Source of the DNA: a virus
Direction: 5' to 3' (one strand)
Virus genome (UHGV): UHGV-0098678
Length of the DNA: 38,888 nucleotides
The translations under genes were made by a program, and so were the position numbers. Shown here one piece after another: positions 2,309 through 34,952 of the stretch (position 1 is the stretch's first letter; each line of letters begins with the position of its first letter). The notes below the pieces were generated by a model. That model had not been told where the DNA came from and searched no databases. It saw nothing but the letters and a program-made list of their open reading frames with translations.

Positions 2309-2934
2309 ACCGCCAGCACCTTACTGGCAGTGATGTACCGCGCGCGCCGGTCGTCGATGCCGTTCCGGCCACCATTGATAATCAGAGTTACACGTGCAAT
2401 ATCGCCGGTATACTTCATGCATCCTTTGCTGGCAAAGAACCACGCCGCGCTACGAGCCGCGTATTCGTCCTGCGCCAGCAGTTCAGGACTCTCCAGCAGG
2501 TCAACCTTAAGACCGTTTCCACAGTCACGATAGTTATTCAAACCGGTAATCTGGATAAGTCCGCGACCACGGTAATTCCAGCCATCACCAGAGGCATTGT
2601 TACCCATGCGTTTGCTGTACACCAGATTTGCGATCGCGCGCTGGCGCTCAAGTGGCAATGGTGGCTCACCAGCACGGCGGCCCAGTGCGTTAGCCTGTCC
2701 CTGGGTGAGACGCCCAGCCCGAACGAAGTTAGCCAGTCCGGTGACGCTGTAGTTGAAATTTTCCTGCAACCGGTTGAAGCCACCAGACTCATGCCCGACC
2801 TGAGCAATAAACATTGCCTGATCTTCGGGTTTGCTGATACCAAACTCTTTCATCGCAGAAGTTATATGCGAGAACCAGCGAGCGGCCAGCGCCTCGCTAA
2901 TACCAGCAGCTCGCTGGAATTGTTTAATCTCCAT
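2305..2934 (-). CDS. endolysin, glycoside hydrolase family 19 (chitinase-like) type
   Basis: ATG at 2934 (MEIKQF...); the longer track ORF to 3165 is an upstream extension overlapping the holin. Motif FIAQVGHESGGF resembles the GH19 catalytic signature; position between holin-like genes and Rz. Confidence 0.75.
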   Translation of the reverse strand: MEIKQFQRAAGISEALAARWFSHITSAMKEFGISKPEDQAMFIAQVGHESGGFNRLQENFNYSVTGLANFVRAGRLTQGQANALGRRAGEPPLPLERQRAIANLVYSKRMGNNASGDGWNYRGRGLIQITGLNNYRDCGNGLKVDLLESPELLAQDEYAARSAAWFFASKGCMKYTGDIARVTLIINGGRNGIDDRRARYITASKVLAV

Positions 2935-3232
2935 GTTTAGACCTCGATATTTTGAAAATATGAACAACGTTACCGCGTGTTTTAATAACCGCGGCAAGCA
3001 TGACAGCGTTGATAATGACCTCAGATAAATCCACAGCCATTGGCGTGCGTAACCAGATTGCATAGACGACACGAACAGGAATACTTGCCGCAGCAACAAT
3101 AAGGAAATAAGCAAGCCACCCTCCCCATCTTCGATGTTGAGAGCCGTTACGCCGGAATGTGACAACGCGAATTGCTATGCCAGTACAAATAACTGCATTG
3201 GTGATAAGCAAAAAAAACTCATGCGTTACCAT
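2924..3232 (-). CDS. holin-like membrane protein (holin or antiholin)
   Basis: 102 aa with 2-3 predicted TM segments; ATG at 3232 with GGGGAG upstream; directly precedes and overlaps the endolysin start. Confidence 0.5.
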   Translation of the reverse strand: MVTHEFFLLITNAVICTGIAIRVVTFRRNGSQHRRWGGWLAYFLIVAAASIPVRVVYAIWLRTPMAVDLSEVIINAVMLAAVIKTRGNVVHIFKISRSKHGD

Positions 3233-3623
3233 CGTCTTTTCTCCCCGGAATTAACTCGCGTGGATTATCGGAACGGTGATAGAGCCAGATGCCAATACGC
3301 ACGGCGACAATTGCTGACACGAATGCGCCTGCAGAGAAAACAATCCCTTTTTCAAAAGAGTCCTGCGTGATGGTAGGGATCAGGCTGGCTATGCCGATAA
3401 GAATTGATGCTGCTGGTTTGTAAAAGAGAAGGCCGCAAAGAAAGCTGAGCATCGACAGGAGCACCCGGCGACGGATGGGGTACTCTACTGCAGAGGTAAC
3501 AAAAATTACCGCCCCAGCCAAAGCCCCTAAAGCAACCTCCGGAGGGACACCTGCAATAACCGCAGCAAGAGAACTAACACTAAGCCACTGATTTGAAGTT
3601 TCATTGGTTAGTTGGAATGACAT
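3219..3623 (-). CDS. holin-like membrane protein
   Basis: 134 aa with several hydrophobic helices (LAAVIAGVPPEVALGALAGAVIFV, ILIGIASLIPTI, FSAGAFVSAIVAVRIGIWLY) and a charged C-terminus; first gene of the lysis cassette after the tail fiber. Confidence 0.45.
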   Translation of the reverse strand: MSFQLTNETSNQWLSVSSLAAVIAGVPPEVALGALAGAVIFVTSAVEYPIRRRVLLSMLSFLCGLLFYKPAASILIGIASLIPTITQDSFEKGIVFSAGAFVSAIVAVRIGIWLYHRSDNPRELIPGRKDDGNA

Positions 3624-6262: not shown

Positions 6263-6277
6263 TTACCTTTCAGGTAA
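6263..6277. promoter_or_regulatory. 15-bp palindrome TTACC-N5-GGTAA (putative repressor operator)
   Basis: TTACCtttcaGGTAA, extended palindrome aTTACC...GGTAAt at 6262-6278; about 40 bp upstream of the LexA box and antirepressor gene; same core as the site at 24915. Confidence 0.5.
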
Positions 6278-22630: not shown

Positions 22631-22927
22631 TCACTCCTGTTCACTGGCCTCTTTGGCCATCTTCAAATACTGTTCAGGGCAATGCGCCATAACGCGCTGA
22701 AACAGTTCCAGCGCCAGATTGCGTTGCCCCTCATTAAATGCCATAGCCATAGCGTCCATCGGTGAGATAGCGGAAAACACACGGCCTTTCTCCAGCACCG
22801 ACCAGACAACGCGACGCCCCTGTTCACTGCTCATGACAAAGCAAATGTCATCAATTTCACGCTGTGCCATGTCACGTTGCTTACGGGCGTTTTCTTCTTT
22901 CAGTTGATCGTCTTCGTAATCTGTCAT
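22631..22927 (-). CDS. hypothetical protein between portal and scaffold
   Basis: 98 aa; ATGA overlap with the portal stop; charged/helical. Confidence 0.45.
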   Translation of the reverse strand: MTDYEDDQLKEENARKQRDMAQREIDDICFVMSSEQGRRVVWSVLEKGRVFSAISPMDAMAMAFNEGQRNLALELFQRVMAHCPEQYLKMAKEASEQE

Positions 22928-24603
22928 TGTGATTGCCCACCCTGACCACTAACTGCATTCGCCATAGCTGACAAAACACTCGGATCCGAAGTTTTAGCTT
23001 CGCTTAGCGTCTTGGCACCCTGTGCCGCCGCCATCCCCATCGCCATCATTTGTTGCTGCTGTTGTTGCTGTGCCCGTTGCTGGCGAGCCTGCTCAACCTG
23101 TTCCTGCGGAACAATGACGGTTGGAGACACTCCGGACATATCAGCGAATGCATCGATCGCCTGATCAACGTTGAGTTTGTCGAGAGCTTCTGGTTTCGCT
23201 TGCGCAAGTTGACCAATGAAGTTGACCGTAGACGCCAGACTGGACAGGCCGATAGACTTCTGCGCCTGAGCCATGACGGAAATGTATTCGACCTTCAGGG
23301 GCATACCTTCCATCGCGTCAGGCGGTGGCGGCAGCATGTTTTTACGCACCATCATCGAGAAAGCGCGGTCAATGAGAGGATTAAGACATTCGTCGTTCAG
23401 ACGCTCCAGAACCGGCCCCAACATCAGAAGTTTTTCTTCTTTCATTTCGATCACCGCTTCAACAGGCATCGAGCGGGTATTGATGTTCTGCAACATCATG
23501 AACAGATCGACAAAGTAGGCGCTGTTAATGATTTGACGGGTGTCCTGAATGTCTGCCACCAAATCTGCTGTACTGGGGTTAACCAGATAAGCAGGCCTGA
23601 AACCATCCTGACCAGTAATCTGATCGATATACGTGATGTCGCCAGGAAGAAGGGAGGCACGCTGATTCTTGAGGGAAGTCGGAGCAACCATCGGCGGATT
23701 GGTGGCTTTATCAATCAACTGCGACTTGCGCTTCTGGAGAAGCTGCAATGCCTTAACAGGTCCAAGCGCCAGCATACCCGGGCATGATGATCCATAAACA
23801 TCTTCGCCGTTAACTTCCCAGCGCGGAGCCATAATTGGAAACTCATCGAATCCGGACTCACGCAACAACTTGTCGTTATCGCCACCAACCTCGTAATAAA
23901 CCGATTTGAATGGCTTGTTCTTGCTATCCAGCTTCGATGTATCGCGGTCAATGTTCGGGTAAACCGAATGCATCACTTCAATCCACTTCTCGTAGGTTCC
24001 GCTTTCCCACATGCTTTTTACGGATTCGCTGACGTTATTTAGCCCGAACTCCTGAACAAGCTGACGAACAGTCATAGAGAACTTGCGAAAACAGGTGTCC
24101 ACACTGCCACGAGGTGAGTTAGCCAGGTAGTAACTGCCTATCGGGAATGGCATTGTGCGAATGATGTCCTCGTCATCCTCCAGCACTGCCATTGCACCAG
24201 TGCTGTATGTGCCGAGGCTTCCGTATAACTGCGGCAGCGACTGATAGAGATTCGACTTATTGAACATATCGTTCATGCGGTTCTGCACCGCCTCAAGCCA
24301 CAACTTAACAGGGCCATAATCCATCATTTCAGGATCTGGCGTAGCCAGGCGAAACCACGGACGCGCGGGGCTTGTGATGCCTGACATCATGCCGCTGGCG
24401 AGAGTGCGCGCCGCCATAGTCCCGGTCGAATCAATAATGCGTGTATTGCGTCGATCGTTACGGTTAACCTCAGAAGTCAGAAAGCGGGAACCACGCGGGT
24501 TGATGTAATCACTCAACTCGCGCCAGTGCGGCTCGAACGACTGACGCTCGCTTTCAAGTTGTGCGAACTGTTTGTTCAATCGCTCTTTAGTTGTTTCCGC
24601 CAT
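22924..24603 (-). CDS. portal (head-to-tail connector) protein, T7 gp8-like
   Basis: 559 aa (T7 gp8 is 536 aa); C-terminal Gln/Ala/Met-rich tail (QQRAQQQQQQQMMAMGMAAAQGA) resembles the T7 gp8 C-terminus. Confidence 0.7.
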   Translation of the reverse strand: MAETTKERLNKQFAQLESERQSFEPHWRELSDYINPRGSRFLTSEVNRNDRRNTRIIDSTGTMAARTLASGMMSGITSPARPWFRLATPDPEMMDYGPVKLWLEAVQNRMNDMFNKSNLYQSLPQLYGSLGTYSTGAMAVLEDDEDIIRTMPFPIGSYYLANSPRGSVDTCFRKFSMTVRQLVQEFGLNNVSESVKSMWESGTYEKWIEVMHSVYPNIDRDTSKLDSKNKPFKSVYYEVGGDNDKLLRESGFDEFPIMAPRWEVNGEDVYGSSCPGMLALGPVKALQLLQKRKSQLIDKATNPPMVAPTSLKNQRASLLPGDITYIDQITGQDGFRPAYLVNPSTADLVADIQDTRQIINSAYFVDLFMMLQNINTRSMPVEAVIEMKEEKLLMLGPVLERLNDECLNPLIDRAFSMMVRKNMLPPPPDAMEGMPLKVEYISVMAQAQKSIGLSSLASTVNFIGQLAQAKPEALDKLNVDQAIDAFADMSGVSPTVIVPQEQVEQARQQRAQQQQQQQMMAMGMAAAQGAKTLSEAKTSDPSVLSAMANAVSGQGGQSQ

Positions 24604-24824: not shown

Positions 24825-24914
24825 ATCAATGACTCCGTACGCAATTAAATTATTACCAATTTAACCACATATGATTTATTTATCGTAGACAGTTGACATT
24901 TAACGTGCGAATTA

Positions 24915-24929
24915 TTACCTTTCAGGTAA
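24915..24929. promoter_or_regulatory. 15-bp palindrome TTACC-N5-GGTAA (putative operator)
   Basis: TTACCtttcaGGTAA, same core as the site at 6263; a TTGACA hexamer lies 17 nt upstream (24893-24898); in the noncoding gap between the portal-side genes and the tRNA. Confidence 0.45.
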
Positions 24930-25251
24930 CCAAAGAGTTCATTCCGGTTACTAACCTGACTGGCTTGTCGTTAAATTGAACAGGTGGAGTGAGCTTTTAT
25001 TTTGAGCAGTACGGCGTATGGCACATGCGCCGATAGCGGTCTGGATGCGTTTAAGGGGCACCCTCCCTGGCTGTGGCAAACGAACCAGGTAGCCGGAATG
25101 TGCAAGTCGAGCGGTTTTATTCCGCGCACGGGGATTCACCATCCCGGCGATTCGGTGTGACGCCTCGGAAGAGACGAGGGTACAACGATGAGAGCATTTA
25201 TGGAGCCGCGACAAAGTGTGGCGCCTTAACAGGCTAAGTGCTCTCAGCGTT

Positions 25252-25328
25252 GTGGCATTAGCTCAGTTGGACAGAGCAACCGCCTTCTAAGCGGTTGGTC
25301 GCAGGTTCGAATCCTGCATGCCACGCCA
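25252..25328 (+). tRNA. tRNA-Arg (anticodon UCU)
   Basis: Hand-folded cloverleaf: acceptor GTGGCAT/ATGCCAC, D-arm GCTC...GAGC, anticodon stem ACCGC/GCGGT with loop CTTCTAA (anticodon TCT), 5-nt variable loop, T-arm GCAGG-TTCGAAT-CCTGC, discriminator G, encoded CCA. Confidence 0.85.
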
Positions 25329-25371: not shown

Positions 25372-25414
25372 GGCGGTGATGGTTTCCCTTGAAGGACTAT
25401 CACCGCCCTTTTTA
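25372..25414 (+). terminator. rho-independent terminator downstream of tRNA
   Basis: Long stem GGCGGTGAT ... ATCACCGCC followed by CTTTTT. Confidence 0.6.
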
Positions 25415-25490
25415 CAGCAGGACGCCATTGCGATGACTTCATGCTGTAAACCAGTACAGCCACGGAAGGCATAACTCATTGCTTCCAGTT

Positions 25491-25516
25491 CGCCCGGTTC
25501 GCCGGGCATTTTTTTA
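25491..25516 (+). terminator. terminator/attenuator hairpin immediately upstream of the moron gene
   Basis: Stem GCCCGG ttcg CCGGGC followed by ATTTTTTT; ends about 10 nt before the SD of the 25527 gene. Confidence 0.5.
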
Positions 25517-25526
25517 AGGTGAGATC

Positions 25527-25949
25527 ATGAAAACAGCCGACATGCTAGCTAAATATCTAAATGAATGGCCGTGCAAATATGTACGCATTGTTCAGGGTGA
25601 TGACTCAATTTTTTATGGTGTTTTTGCAGGAAATGAAATGCTTTGTGAAGCAATTCCAGGTGAGCGACTTGCCGGGTTAACGCTTAGCGATGACCATGGA
25701 ATAGGAGTTACTTGCCATGACTGGATTTCAGCGCAGAAAACTGAAATGGAAAAAGGCAATGTGTTTGATATTTCTCGCGCTGTATACGCCAAAGAAAAAA
25801 GTGATGATGATTACATGCGCGAAAACTTATACAACATGAAGTTACAATGCCTGGCTGAAGTGCTTAGTAAAAGATCTTTACTTGATGTGGTTGGTGCTGA
25901 GCAGGACGCCAAGGCAATCAACGCCGCATTCGATAAAATAACCTTCTAA
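25527..25949 (+). CDS. hypothetical protein (moron, opposite strand to the structural operon)
   Basis: 140 aa; ATG 25527 with SD AAGGTGAG; flanked by terminators on both sides; no recognisable family. Confidence 0.55.
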   Translation: MKTADMLAKYLNEWPCKYVRIVQGDDSIFYGVFAGNEMLCEAIPGERLAGLTLSDDHGIGVTCHDWISAQKTEMEKGNVFDISRAVYAKEKSDDDYMRENLYNMKLQCLAEVLSKRSLLDVVGAEQDAKAINAAFDKITF

Positions 25950-25969
25950 CGCCGTGACATGTCACAATC

Positions 25970-25995
25970 AGCCCGCCGATTCGCGGGCTTTTTTA
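25970..25995 (+). terminator. rho-independent terminator
   Basis: Stem GCCCGC cgattc GCGGGC followed by TTTTTT; overlaps the stop codon of the convergent TerL gene. Confidence 0.65.
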
Positions 25996-27468
25996 TGCAA
26001 AAGGATCATAGTCTGTGATGGCTTTGCCTTGCTGGTTCTGCTGCCCAGGAATTCGCAGACGCTTCGACACAGGGAAAGCAAACGTCAGCAGTAGCGCATC
26101 GCCTTTACCCGGCGAACGCCCAAGCCGCTCCTTGATATCTTCCTTCGGTTCGATAACGATTTTACCGTCCACACGAACTTTGTACTCTGCTGCCGACAGG
26201 TCGTCCGCTGTTTCCTGGTCATCCAGCATGCCGCCGAGCCTCAGCCATGTCTTGCATGAGTTGAACATCTCCCCACGCTTGTTGAGCATCTGCGGGTCAG
26301 TAGACGCGCCACCGAACGGAACAAGTTGCCATGTACGACCCCAGCCGTCACCGATTGACTTCAGACCAGTTCCGTAACCGAAGTCGATGAACACTGCGTC
26401 AGCCTGGTACTGGTCTTCAAAGTCAGCGATACGCTTCGCCATAATCAGATCGTCAGTGGTCTTGTTGCCAGTCCACAGCACCTTACTGTGCAGCCCCTGC
26501 CGCAGGTATATCACAGCGTCATCAACGCCTGAGTATGCCGGGTCAACGCCGATTATCACCGGAGCATGTGCAACCTGCGCAGCGGTTACCACCCGTTTCA
26601 TTGCCTCGTCAGTAAGACCGGTAGGGATAAACTGCAATTCAGATGCATCAGGGAATATGCCGCGCACACGGATTTTAACGAAGTCGCTATCTTCCCCGTA
26701 GTCATCAACCCATTTCTGCAACTGCTGTTTGTTAGTGCCTTCCACCGTCCGGCTGTCAATCTGCGCAGTTTTCCAGCGGTGTTTATATTTGCGGAAACAT
26801 TCGCGGAAACGCCCGGTGTTACGTGTAGGGTTTCCGAACGCTACCCAGATAATCTCAGTGTCTTCGTCCGTAAGCGCACCCTCAGCAACTTCCCACACCA
26901 GATCCGCAATGTTCGACGCTTCATCGAATACCACGATGATGCGTTTGCGCTCGTTGTGTAGTCCGGCGAACGCCTCAGTGTTGTGCTCAGACCAGGGGAT
27001 TGCGTCAGCTCGCCACCGCTTGTCGTGCCCAGGGTCATTGCTGTACATCGCGGTAGCGGTACAGGTAAACCAGTCTTTCGTGATAGCAAGGTTCGACCAC
27101 TTGATAATTTCCGGCCAGGTCTTCGTTCGTAGCTGGTTGTCGGTGTTGGCGGTCACCACAACCTTACAATCCTCGCAAGTGGACATGCCCCAGTTGATCA
27201 GCATTGAGATGAATGCGGATTTACCAATACCGTGACCCGAAGCGCGTGCCAGCATAAGCGGCTGATAGCGCGTCTCTGGATTCTGCAGGTGATCACGTAT
27301 CTCTCGGAACGCATCAGCCTGCCACTGACGTGGACCGGTGGCATGTGCCAGTTCAGTCCCATCTTCCCCCCACGGGAACGCATAGAGGGCATAGCCAAGC
27401 GGATCGTGAGTGAACCCTGCAATATCCTCGATTAACTGCTCTTCAGGAGATAACGCTGTATCTGTCAC
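25993..27468 (-). CDS. terminase large subunit
   Basis: 491 aa; GTG start overlapping the TerS stop (GTGA); Walker A-like ARASGHGIGKS and acidic motif IIVVFDEASNI typical of TerL ATPase domains; C-terminal nuclease-like region. Confidence 0.8.
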   Translation of the reverse strand: MTDTALSPEEQLIEDIAGFTHDPLGYALYAFPWGEDGTELAHATGPRQWQADAFREIRDHLQNPETRYQPLMLARASGHGIGKSAFISMLINWGMSTCEDCKVVVTANTDNQLRTKTWPEIIKWSNLAITKDWFTCTATAMYSNDPGHDKRWRADAIPWSEHNTEAFAGLHNERKRIIVVFDEASNIADLVWEVAEGALTDEDTEIIWVAFGNPTRNTGRFRECFRKYKHRWKTAQIDSRTVEGTNKQQLQKWVDDYGEDSDFVKIRVRGIFPDASELQFIPTGLTDEAMKRVVTAAQVAHAPVIIGVDPAYSGVDDAVIYLRQGLHSKVLWTGNKTTDDLIMAKRIADFEDQYQADAVFIDFGYGTGLKSIGDGWGRTWQLVPFGGASTDPQMLNKRGEMFNSCKTWLRLGGMLDDQETADDLSAAEYKVRVDGKIVIEPKEDIKERLGRSPGKGDALLLTFAFPVSKRLRIPGQQNQQGKAITDYDPFA

Positions 27469-28061
27469 TGATTACCATCCTGACGTTCTTTGAGTCGCTT
27501 CCTGGCTGCTGCTATGCGATCAGCAATTGTCACATTCACATTAACATCCAGACGTTCTTTGAATGCGTTGACATCAACATGCTTACCAATCAGCTCAAGG
27601 TTCTTCACCTTGTCAGGCCATTTAATTTTTTTGAGGATTGTCTCTATTGAATCCTCGTTCATGTTCATGATGGTCGATGACAGATCAAAGCCACTAAGCG
27701 TAGTGCGCCAGATTTTCGGCCACTCACGGATTGGTTTAAGGCTCCCATCGTCGTTGAGGATGTCGATCACGTCCATCTGGTCGATCTCCACCAGGCGCAT
27801 GAGAACGTAATCAGCACTGACACGCATTCGTTTGTTGCGCTCCTCCATCAACTCGGCAATCCGTTTCTGAATGCGTTCATCGCGCATCATGACACTGGCT
27901 TTAACTGCCGCTGTATTTGGGGAGAATCCTGCGTTAATCGCAGCCTGAGTCTGGTTTTCAGGCGTTTTGATGTATGACTGGCAATAAGCCTCCTGCATTG
28001 CTGTGAGCGGCTTAAATTGCGTTGATTTGCGTTTATAGGTTTTAGGTTCAGCAGGCATCAT
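27465..28061 (-). CDS. terminase small subunit (start uncertain)
   Basis: Motif block AMQEAYCQSYIKTPENQTQAAINAGFSPNTAAVKASVMMRDERIQKRIAELMEE matches the TerS DNA-binding domain pattern; start taken at ATG 28061 (MMPAEPK...) because the track ORF begins at an upstream TTG with a hydrophobic extension. Confidence 0.6.
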   Translation of the reverse strand: MMPAEPKTYKRKSTQFKPLTAMQEAYCQSYIKTPENQTQAAINAGFSPNTAAVKASVMMRDERIQKRIAELMEERNKRMRVSADYVLMRLVEIDQMDVIDILNDDGSLKPIREWPKIWRTTLSGFDLSSTIMNMNEDSIETILKKIKWPDKVKNLELIGKHVDVNAFKERLDVNVNVTIADRIAAARKRLKERQDGNQ

Positions 28062-28078
28062 AACTACCGTGGTAATTG

Positions 28079-28093
28079 TTACCGTTGTGGTAA
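28079..28093. promoter_or_regulatory. 15-bp palindrome TTACC-N5-GGTAA (putative operator)
   Basis: TTACCgttgtGGTAA about 18 nt upstream of the proposed TerS start, just downstream of a - strand terminator hairpin. Confidence 0.45.
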
Positions 28094-28103
28094 TAATACC
28101 ATG

Positions 28104-28130
28104 CAAAATAAAGCCGCCATAGTTGGCGGC
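28104..28130 (-). terminator. rho-independent terminator on the - strand upstream of TerS (tR'-like position)
   Basis: On the - strand: GCCGCC aacuau GGCGGC followed by UUUAUUUU; located between the Cys-rich small gene (28180-28518) and TerS. Confidence 0.55.
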
Positions 28131-28179
28131 AGTATTCAAAATCCATCAAATTCATCATGCATAATCTACTCGTGACATG

Positions 28180-28518
28180 TCACACTATTAATTTCGTTTC
28201 ATGCCAGCCTTTAGTCACCCAGCATTGTGAGTCACCATTACACGGACATGAATTAACTGGAACTCTCTCGCCGCACTTACCGCAACGTGTTCTGCTGATC
28301 GATTTTATACGCCCGTGCACGCGTGCATCATCCTGGCGGATCAGTAACGCTATATACTCACCAAATTCGTAAGGCGCACGCCCGGGGCGACGCGTGGCAC
28401 AGTTACGCTCCAGAATTTCAATTTCCTGAGCATCAAGCACAATCTCCAGCTTACGCACACCAGATGCAGCTTGTCTGGCTCTCTGAGCGGCTTTGCGCTC
28501 TGCTGCTGATTTAGCCAT
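28180..28518 (-). CDS. hypothetical DNA-binding-like protein with Cys-rich C-terminal zinc-ribbon motif (candidate late regulator)
   Basis: ATG 28518 (track ORF begins one codon earlier at TTG); N-terminal basic/helical region (KLEIVLDAQEIEILERN) and C-terminal CGKCGERVPVNSCPCNGDSQC; last gene before the terminator and TerS. Confidence 0.4.
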   Translation of the reverse strand: MAKSAAERKAAQRARQAASGVRKLEIVLDAQEIEILERNCATRRPGRAPYEFGEYIALLIRQDDARVHGRIKSISRTRCGKCGERVPVNSCPCNGDSQCWVTKGWHETKLIV

Positions 28519-34367: not shown

Positions 34368-34952
34368 ATGAAAAGTATCCAGGACGTCCGCAGGCAAAAT
34401 CTCAACGACTTGATCGACCGTGAATTCAATGGTGTTCAGACGCGGATGGCAGAAAAACTTGGAACTCAGGCAAATCTGGTAAACCGCTGGGCTCTTGGCA
34501 AGAAGGTTATCGGCGACCAGGTTGCACGAAAAATTGAAGCTGCCGCCAATAAACCCCGTAACTGGCTTGATATTGATCGTTCGCTTTCTCAGGAGGGTTT
34601 TCAGCCTGTCGGACCAAGCGACATTGGTCAACTGGCGGCTCACAACCTGGAACGCTGGATGAGCGAAAGCCGCGACCTTTCAACACAGGGAAAACTTCAC
34701 CGCGCATCCGGCGTAGCCCAGGTGACAATCAGCCGCCTGTTAAACAATGAGGTCAGCGTTTCCATTTCCACCCTGGAGAATGTTGCATCCGCATTCGGGC
34801 GTCATGGCTATGAATTACTGATTCACCCGCACGACCCTGCGACCATCAACTATGATCGCTCGCGCTACGCATTGTTACCCGAAACCGAGAAAGCAAAGAT
34901 CGAAAGTTACATTGAATTTGTCATCAACCAGAACGAAAAAAGCAAACAATAA
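34368..34952 (+). CDS. phage repressor-like protein with two HTH domains and no S24 peptidase domain
   Basis: 194 aa; first HTH around QTRMAEKLGTQANLVNRWALGKK, second around LHRASGVAQVTISRLLNNEVSVSISTLENVASAFG; no Ala-Gly/Ser-Lys autocleavage module; sits between operator clusters like lambda cI. Confidence 0.55.
   Translation: MKSIQDVRRQNLNDLIDREFNGVQTRMAEKLGTQANLVNRWALGKKVIGDQVARKIEAAANKPRNWLDIDRSLSQEGFQPVGPSDIGQLAAHNLERWMSESRDLSTQGKLHRASGVAQVTISRLLNNEVSVSISTLENVASAFGRHGYELLIHPHDPATINYDRSRYALLPETEKAKIESYIEFVINQNEKSKQ

Follow-up and report, generated by a model that had tools for sequence, protein, structure and literature searches.

Why would a temperate phage keep a small gene that runs against its late operon, between the terminase gene and a tRNA gene? 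The question is raised by the UHGV virus genome UHGV-0098678, analysed here as one stretch of 38,888 nucleotides (the window), which is a phiV10-like Uetakevirus genome with phage PAS61 as its nearest relative (98% over the region). Nearly all long open reading frames (ORFs) between about 3.2 and 33.6 kb lie on the minus strand, and the only plus-strand features within this run are tRNA-Arg(UCU) and an ORF of 140 amino acids (aa). A first-pass annotation, made from the sequence alone, had presented this ORF as a terminator-insulated orphan gene that opposes the late operon and has a strong Shine-Dalgarno (SD) sequence, and had likened it to morons for lysogenic conversion, exclusion or defence. 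The orientation, with neighbours on the minus strand, and the SD are as described, as are a hairpin just ahead of the SD, whose T-run ends right at the SD, and a downstream terminator whose T-run spans the TerL stop codon (Table 1). Our results indicate that phiV10-like temperate phages have a cassette slot at this place and that the 140-aa ORF is one of the cargos exchanged in it. We tentatively propose that its product is made early, under control of the phage repressor, and acts in counter-defence, possibly as a new sponge.

A cassette slot with interchangeable cargos

At the same place, phage phiV10 carries a different gene, coding for a PF13876 protein (E = 6e-35), behind an identical terminator hairpin (T2) and SD and ahead of the same palindrome. 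The flanks of phiV10 and of the window are identical up to AAGGTGAGATCA and identity resumes at CCGTGACATGTCACAA. We surveyed the slot in 80 IMG/VR loci, chosen for a TerL with at least 98% identity to that of the window; 76 of them had both slot borders. PF13876-like (Acb4) genes occupied 35 of these 76 loci and the 140-aa family (PHROG 4846) 20, plus two hairpin-only cases. An unassigned 113-aa family was found in five loci, proteins combining a transmembrane (TM) segment with a coiled coil in three to four, and a stand-alone Tad2-like protein and a repeat-rich 115-aa protein in one locus each, while in at least four loci the slot was deleted to a 9-codon stub. In all contexts examined, the 140-aa gene has a small gene upstream of the portal gene, or a tRNA, on one side and TerL on the other, and its hosts are Uetakevirus-type phages or prophages.

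The borders of the slot are the same for nearly all cargos: T2 followed by AAGGTGAGAT(C/T)ATG upstream, and TAAC-CCGTGACATGTCACAA-CAGCC followed by a terminator downstream. The string AAGGTGAGAT(C/T)ATG is identical ahead of the Acb4-like, Tad2-like, 113-aa and 140-aa cargos, and the T2 hairpin is common to all cargo types, with the compensatory stem variants GCCCACTTCGGTGGGC and GCCCACTTCAGTGGGC found in relatives. Because T2, the SD and the downstream palindrome with its terminator (T3) are common to cargo types, they are features of the backbone and not of the 140-aa gene. The hairpins that had been read as insulating this gene are present, but they are joints of the slot, and cargos are swapped by recombination at these two places (T2/SD and palindrome/T3). 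The moron reading holds in the same partial manner: the gene is accessory and horizontally exchanged within a structural module, as indicated by its GC content (41%, versus 54% for TerL) and by its presence or absence among loci with near-identical TerL.

Individual genomes reveal further arrangements. The slot of Klebsiella phage ST512-KPC3phi13.3 holds a Tad2-like cargo (E = 4e-26), that of SPN1S a 64-aa gene, and that of BUCT554 a hairpin-only fragment together with a PF13876 gene. Enterobacter prophages carry a member of the 140-aa family, a PF13876 gene and an 82-aa gene in one slot, with the family member located 11 nt upstream of the Acb4 homolog. In E. coli PF9285, the slot gene joins the N-domain of the 140-aa family (71% identity, residues 1-75) in-frame to a Tad2-like domain (E = 1e-23). 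Among 5426 complete E. coli genomes, one has this chimera, which was also found in seven contigs; Tad2 is the only fusion partner observed for the N-domain.

PF13876 (‘Phage_gp49_66’) is the Acb4 family of nucleotide sponges acting against the cyclic oligonucleotide-based anti-phage signaling system (CBASS) (10.1101/2024.12.30.630793), and PF11195/DUF2829 is Tad2, an anti-Thoeris sponge for glycocyclic ADP-ribose (gcADPR) (10.1101/2023.05.01.538930). The identifiable sister cargos are counter-defence genes, at odds with the defence or lysogenic-conversion type initially suggested. Other cargos include the helical 113-aa family (loci L036, L070 and L068), proteins of 246 and 310 aa with an N-terminal TM segment followed by a long coiled coil (L061, L071 and L102), which could be exclusion or abortive infection (Abi)-like proteins, the repeat-rich 115-aa protein (L078), a 143-aa gene product of Salmonella PAT1 (L022:3313-3744) and a DUF551 protein. 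No Pfam match above the curated cut-off was obtained for the cargos of 113, 246/310, 115 and 143 aa.

The 140-aa protein and known sponges

The 140-aa protein matches PHROG 4846, a family of unknown function, over its whole length (E = 8e-87). Its homologs form 111 clusters in Enterobacteriaceae (Escherichia, Salmonella, Citrobacter, Klebsiella, Enterobacter and Hafnia), all within Uetakevirus-type phages or prophages; the exact protein is found on at least 1000 contigs, and the gene in 134 of the 5426 complete E. coli genomes. It is therefore no orphan. Library, profile and fold searches added nothing to PHROG 4846. This was the sole library match, Pfam (E <= 1), NCBIfam and PADLOC (E <= 1) yielding no family. 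The family is very small nonetheless: when 1.84 billion representatives were searched in depth with its profile, only 31 relatives came up, none of them annotated, and we discarded a 1269-aa hit of this search as a chance match to Ig-like repeats. Foldseek searches of BFVD with the structural model returned only uncharacterised phage proteins, a sequence profile search of the PDB with the family returned nothing, and a literature search for PHROG 4846, or for phiV10 together with the tRNA-Arg, turned up nothing specific. The gene is under purifying selection (pairwise dN/dS of about 0.2, for dS up to 0.9), and the invariant residues of the family are retained across genera.

In the AlphaFold2 (AF2) model of the protein, built like all our models as a monomer (predicted local distance difference test score, pLDDT, of 81), residues 1-75 form an N-terminal alpha/beta domain and residues 93-136 a C-terminal helical hairpin, joined by a linker (76-92) that is acidic and disordered. 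The protein, which has no TM segment, is acidic (pI 4.8, net charge -7) and soluble. Its parts are shuffled among relatives, some of which carry an additional third C-terminal module or join the N-domain straight to this third module, while Tyrion gp53 and others have a different N-terminus on the same C-terminal hairpin. Two alternative alleles of the hairpin circulate (…LAEVLSKR…DKITF and …LHAALIQN…DAIK). Comparison of the gene in the window with a relative (L004:6001-6423) gave a dS of 0.92 in the N-domain and of 0.00 in the C-terminal 65 codons, which indicates recombination at the domain boundary.

How does this family compare with the sponges that share its slot? Like the 140-aa family, Acb4 is a short, phage-restricted cytoplasmic protein that occupies the identical slot with identical joints and, in Enterobacter prophages, the adjacent position. 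The two differ in that the 140-aa protein has no sequence or profile similarity to Acb4 (no PF13876 match in Pfam at E <= 1; hhalign probability of 0.2 against phiV10 p03), and in its predicted architecture of an alpha/beta domain and a helical hairpin. Tad2 is likewise found in this slot and as a fusion partner of the N-domain, yet the fusion is rare and the 140-aa protein itself is devoid of a Tad2 domain (no PF11195/DUF2829 match in Pfam at E <= 1; hhalign probability of 0.2 against the Klebsiella Tad2-like cargo). A third point of comparison is Sequestin (PF21825), a sponge family that came to light through proteins joining it to Tad2 or Acb4. Looking for partners of known sponges in such proteins has been validated by experiment as a route to new sponges, Sequestin being an example (10.1101/2025.07.12.664507), and sponges are often fused to one another. 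The argument for the 140-aa family runs along the same lines: it and Sequestin are phage modules found fused to and beside known sponges, and both include a small helical module. However, the 140-aa protein has no match to PF21825 (Pfam, E <= 1), the part that is fused is its alpha/beta N-domain and not its helical part, and its fusions amount to a handful versus 60-91 for Sequestin. With regard to the traits of the sponge class in general, the 140-aa protein is short (modules of about 75 and 45 aa), restricted to phages and prophages, of unknown function, soluble, acidic and modular, with recombination inside the gene where its domains meet, and it is fused to known sponges or encoded at the same locus (rare Tad2 chimera, Acb4 tandem, shared slot).

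A putative repressor operator, a leader RNA and three terminators

The only conserved promoter is located 630 nt upstream of the 140-aa gene. In ten Uetakevirus genomes, from Escherichia, Salmonella, Klebsiella and Enterobacter hosts, its −35 and −10 regions are invariant and its spacer is variable in sequence and constant in length. A stricter promoter scan missed it, the −10 element matching the consensus at three of six positions (TAnnnT). We looked for a promoter between T1, the terminator that follows the tRNA, and the ATG and found none that was convincing; the 19 nt between T2 and the ATG, SD included, contain no promoter-like site, contrary to the constitutive promoter context that the first-pass annotation had considered for the gene.

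A perfect copy of an operator-like palindrome overlaps the slot promoter. Matches to TTACCTNNNAGGTAA with at most two mismatches number 16 in the window, compared with 0.86 expected by chance. Two copies (34250 and 34298) have the cro-like gene on one side and, on the other, the HTH_3 repressor gene (34368-34952), which codes for a 194-aa helix-turn-helix (HTH) protein, and two more (35010 and 35072) lie just after the repressor gene, at a TTGACA promoter ahead of the exo/RecT genes. Judging from their sequence and location, the copies around the HTH_3 gene are at the positions of the right and left operators (OR and OL). Sites of the form (A)TTACCY-N3-RGGTAA(T) were found at 6263, 6644, 7685, 24915, 31905, 31967, 33913, 34250, 34298, 35010 and 35072, in addition to weaker ones. 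Besides the OR and OL positions they thus occupy several further intergenic regions, and this dispersal suggests a repressor regulon reminiscent of the C1 operators of P1. The perfect copy on the slot promoter would place the plus-strand unit in this putative early regulon, presumably silent in the lysogen and active upon infection or induction. Repression in the lysogen and early expression thus appear more likely than the prophage expression expected by the first-pass annotation, and such timing would fit a counter-defence role.

Between the slot promoter and the tRNA lies a structured, non-coding leader RNA. A covariance model (R1) gives the copy in the window a score of 178.9 bits (E = 1e-49). 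In an alignment of 15 sequences, 98% of the cells at the 27 predicted pairs are paired and ten pairs have compensatory changes, a result reached by none of 500 shuffles; slid controls were 30-42% paired. On its 3′ side, GAGAGCA pairs with TGCTCTC in a long-range stem around a variable insert. Rfam 15, searched at E <= 1, gave only the tRNA and no match to the leader RNA; a sub-threshold Trp_leader match at 25886-25996 was merely the T3 hairpin. In some relatives, the 3′-stem insert or the tRNA position contains tRNA fragments (T-arm-like GGTTCGAATCC) or a pseudogenic tRNA-Gly (L012:~3560-3620, L013:~2920-3000 and L018:2089-2203), and no intact tRNA is present at this position in the Enterobacter phages.

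The leader RNA is not confined to the cassette slot. It was found in 83 phage records and matched in 1074 of the 5426 complete E. coli genomes; in 501 of these, the match extended over the full Uetakevirus-type backbone. Copies were located at L015:3998-4200, L019:2998-3200, L021:2498-2700 and L025:2437-2622, and further ones at L024:2440-2620, L023:2435-2628 and L026:2498-2704. In lambdoids of the SfV/ST64B/e14 type, including Shiga toxin 2 (Stx2) phages, it directly follows a cI-like gene and a near-consensus PL-like promoter and precedes early-left operons of the yfdP/yfdQ/yfdR type. In P1, P7, D6 and SJ46 it lies between trnI and ban, which in P1 and P7 is inside the C1-controlled ban operon, 2.4 kb from Pban in P1. 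Klebsiella SopranoGao and phage BUCT708 also contain it, followed in BUCT708 by a hairpin nearly identical to T2.

These positions suggest that the leader RNA may be a cis-acting antiterminator, which would explain why genes sit behind terminators. According to a 2025 paper, the N-less lambdoid phage LLS, whose early-left operon is also of the yfdP/yfdQ/yfdR type, may use RNA antitermination of the put type. Like put of HK022, the leader RNA is structured, comes shortly after early promoters under repressor control and ahead of terminators and, in lambdoids, is part of the PL leader of N-less phages (PMC9378689, PMC12315714). It differs in size and complexity (about 200-240 nt and at least five helices, versus about 70 nt and two stem-loops) and in its distance from Pban in P1. 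Antitermination is proposed here by analogy. We considered homology with put of HK022 and rejected it, since the covariance model found no match in the 22-32 kb region of HK022. A literature search on antiterminator RNAs in such phages turned up nothing specific.

Three terminators follow the leader RNA, each with its U-tail on the plus strand only. T1, which the first-pass annotation lacked, is stronger than T2 and T3 (−22.8 kcal/mol, z-score of −5.0) and is kept in relatives. T2 folds at −12.7 kcal/mol (z-score of −3.3) and T3 at −13.7 kcal/mol (z-score of −3.7). No minus-strand terminator was found across the slot, and late transcripts leaving TerL would consequently run antisense through it toward the portal gene. 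The 84-nt spacer between T1 and T2 (25408-25491) is kept in Escherichia, Salmonella and Klebsiella relatives, including an ACAGCA…TGCTGT hairpin; PAS61 has a 33-nt deletion in it. The palindrome of the downstream joint has a second perfect copy at 28172-28183, just upstream of TerS (two copies versus 0.08 expected), and, with one mismatch, a third copy at 22864-22875. The two perfect copies flank the terminase genes, and the palindrome could be a late-regulator or terminase-related site doubling as a recombination joint.

Table 1. Features of the cassette slot and its surroundings (window coordinates)
Feature	Position	Strand	Description
Portal gene	22924-24603	−	Late operon
Slot promoter	24893-24921	+	Sigma-70 type; TTGACA (24893-98), 17-nt spacer, TACCTT (24916-21)
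Operator-like palindrome	24915-24929		TTACCTTTCAGGTAA; perfect copy overlapping −10 and +1 of the slot promoter
Leader RNA	25008-25251 (core 25008-25211)	+	Structured, non-coding; between slot promoter and tRNA
tRNA-Arg (anticodon UCU)	25252-25328	+	ARAGORN; Rfam tRNA model, 73 bits
T1 terminator	25372-25416 (hairpin 25372-25407)	+	14-bp stem then CTTTTT; directly 3′ of the tRNA
T2 terminator, upstream joint	25492-25515	+	GC-only 6-bp hairpin GCCCGGTTCGCCGGGC (25492-25507) then A+T7
Shine-Dalgarno	25516-25523	+	AAGGTGAG; about 7 nt ahead of the ATG; part of the conserved joint
140-aa ORF	25527-25949	+	ATG start; between tRNA-Arg and TerL
Palindrome, downstream joint	25954-25965		GTGACATGTCAC; perfect; kept after nearly every cargo type
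T3 terminator	25970-25995	+	7-bp hairpin AGCCCGCCGATTCGCGGGCT (25970-25989) then T5; no U-tail on the minus strand
TerL stop codon	25993-25995	−	
TerL	25993-27468	−	Late-operon neighbour; right edge of the slot
TerS	27465-28139	−	Late operon

A proposed counter-defence role and its alternatives

Together, the shared slot, the tandem with Acb4 and the Tad2 chimera make counter-defence the best-supported function of the 140-aa protein, a proposal that may well be correct and that we hold as a tentative one; a sponge is the most specific guess and carries roughly half of this confidence. The unit would comprise, in order, a repressor-controlled sigma-70 promoter, a leader RNA of about 240 nt, tRNA-Arg(UCU), T1, T2 with the SD, the cargo, and the palindrome with T3. 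The promoter would fire in the absence of the phage repressor, and transcription would read through T1 and T2, possibly assisted by the leader RNA acting in cis; convergent late transcription may later damp expression of the cargo. The N-terminal alpha/beta domain would bind the target, which could be a component of host immunity or a nucleotide that serves as an immune signal, and the helical hairpin would oligomerise the protein. At an early stage of infection or induction, the 140-aa protein would thereby weaken an anti-phage system of the host, like Acb4 and Tad2 in sister phages. Several observations weigh against this proposal. The N-domain::Tad2 chimera is rare and could be a by-product of cassette recombination instead of a selected fusion. 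The cargos with a membrane and coiled-coil appearance could be exclusion or defence proteins, and co-location leaves the direction of function unfixed. Typical sponges are smaller and less acidic than this protein, which has 140 aa and a net negative charge. Sponges sequester a nucleotide immune signal, relieving Thoeris, CBASS or Pycsar, and are homo-oligomers with positively charged pockets where protomers meet; for the 140-aa protein, modelled as a monomer, such an assembly would be a prediction. Two terminators separate promoter and gene, so that the proposed expression depends on read-through, and binding of the repressor to the palindrome is predicted from the DNA sequence.

Lambdoid morons, in the HK97/lambda sense, are extra genes with their own promoter and terminator that are expressed from the prophage. 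The 140-aa gene resembles them as an extra gene between conserved genes, with a deviant GC content, a flanking terminator on either side and variable presence among close relatives, and the family resides overwhelmingly in integrated prophages. A moron transcribed in the lysogen for superinfection exclusion, abortive infection, another defence or lysogenic conversion would also find company in the 246/310-aa cargos, which resemble exclusion or Abi proteins, and a single operator may repress the slot promoter only partly. Yet the gene has no promoter of its own, its flanking signals belong to the backbone, and the promoter of the unit carries the same operator-like sequence as OR and OL, which predicts repression in lysogens and makes prophage expression doubtful. 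Given also that the product is acidic, cytoplasmic and without a membrane segment, that it matches no PADLOC model and that the identifiable sister cargos counteract defence, we consider a prophage-expressed moron unlikely. Somewhat less likely still is an accessory role early in infection that is directed at something other than immunity, such as host DNA replication or repair, another host process or the regulation of a phage function. An early unit would suit any host take-over function, and the DUF551 and 113-aa cargos have no known role, but nothing else points to replication or repair, Acb4 dominates slot occupancy and the N-domain has been observed fused to Tad2 only.

Could the gene simply be silent, shut off by T1 and T2 and kept by hitch-hiking? 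The position of both terminators between the sole promoter and the gene would be compatible with an unexpressed passenger. We regard this as very improbable in light of the purifying selection and invariant residues described above, the conserved SD and the presence of the validated Acb4 and Tad2 families at exactly the same position behind T2. A role as virion, assembly or packaging factor is suggested only by the location between TerL and the portal gene and is effectively refuted: the gene runs on the other strand, phiV10 and most relatives with near-identical TerL lack it, which makes it dispensable across sister phages, unrelated genes replace it in the same slot, and it has no structural PHROG or Pfam match.

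The early counter-defence reading also has a more far-reaching version, which as a whole we deem improbable. The N-domain would found a new family of counter-defence modules, for instance sponges, shuffled with Tad2, the helical hairpin and the third module. The cassette would be delivered by an undescribed, repressor-controlled early unit. The leader RNA of this unit, of roughly 200 nt and also present in P1, in Stx-converting phages and in lambdoids of the SfV/ST64B type, would represent a new class of processive antiterminators that act in cis and take RNA polymerase past T1 and T2. The leader RNA may in fact be the more interesting item compared with the 140-aa gene, as it reaches phages that serve as models or matter in medicine (P1, P7 and Stx2 phages) and about one fifth of complete E. 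coli genomes; if it is an antiterminator, it would explain how the early-left operons of N-less lambdoids are run. Inhibition of a defence system by the 140-aa protein would, if true, add a new fold to the few phage counter-defence families. Near-isogenic phages that differ only in the cassette (Acb4, Tad2, 140-aa family or empty) constitute a ready natural experiment, and the slot provides a compact and well-delimited place to mine counter-defence genes in the prophages of Enterobacteriaceae.

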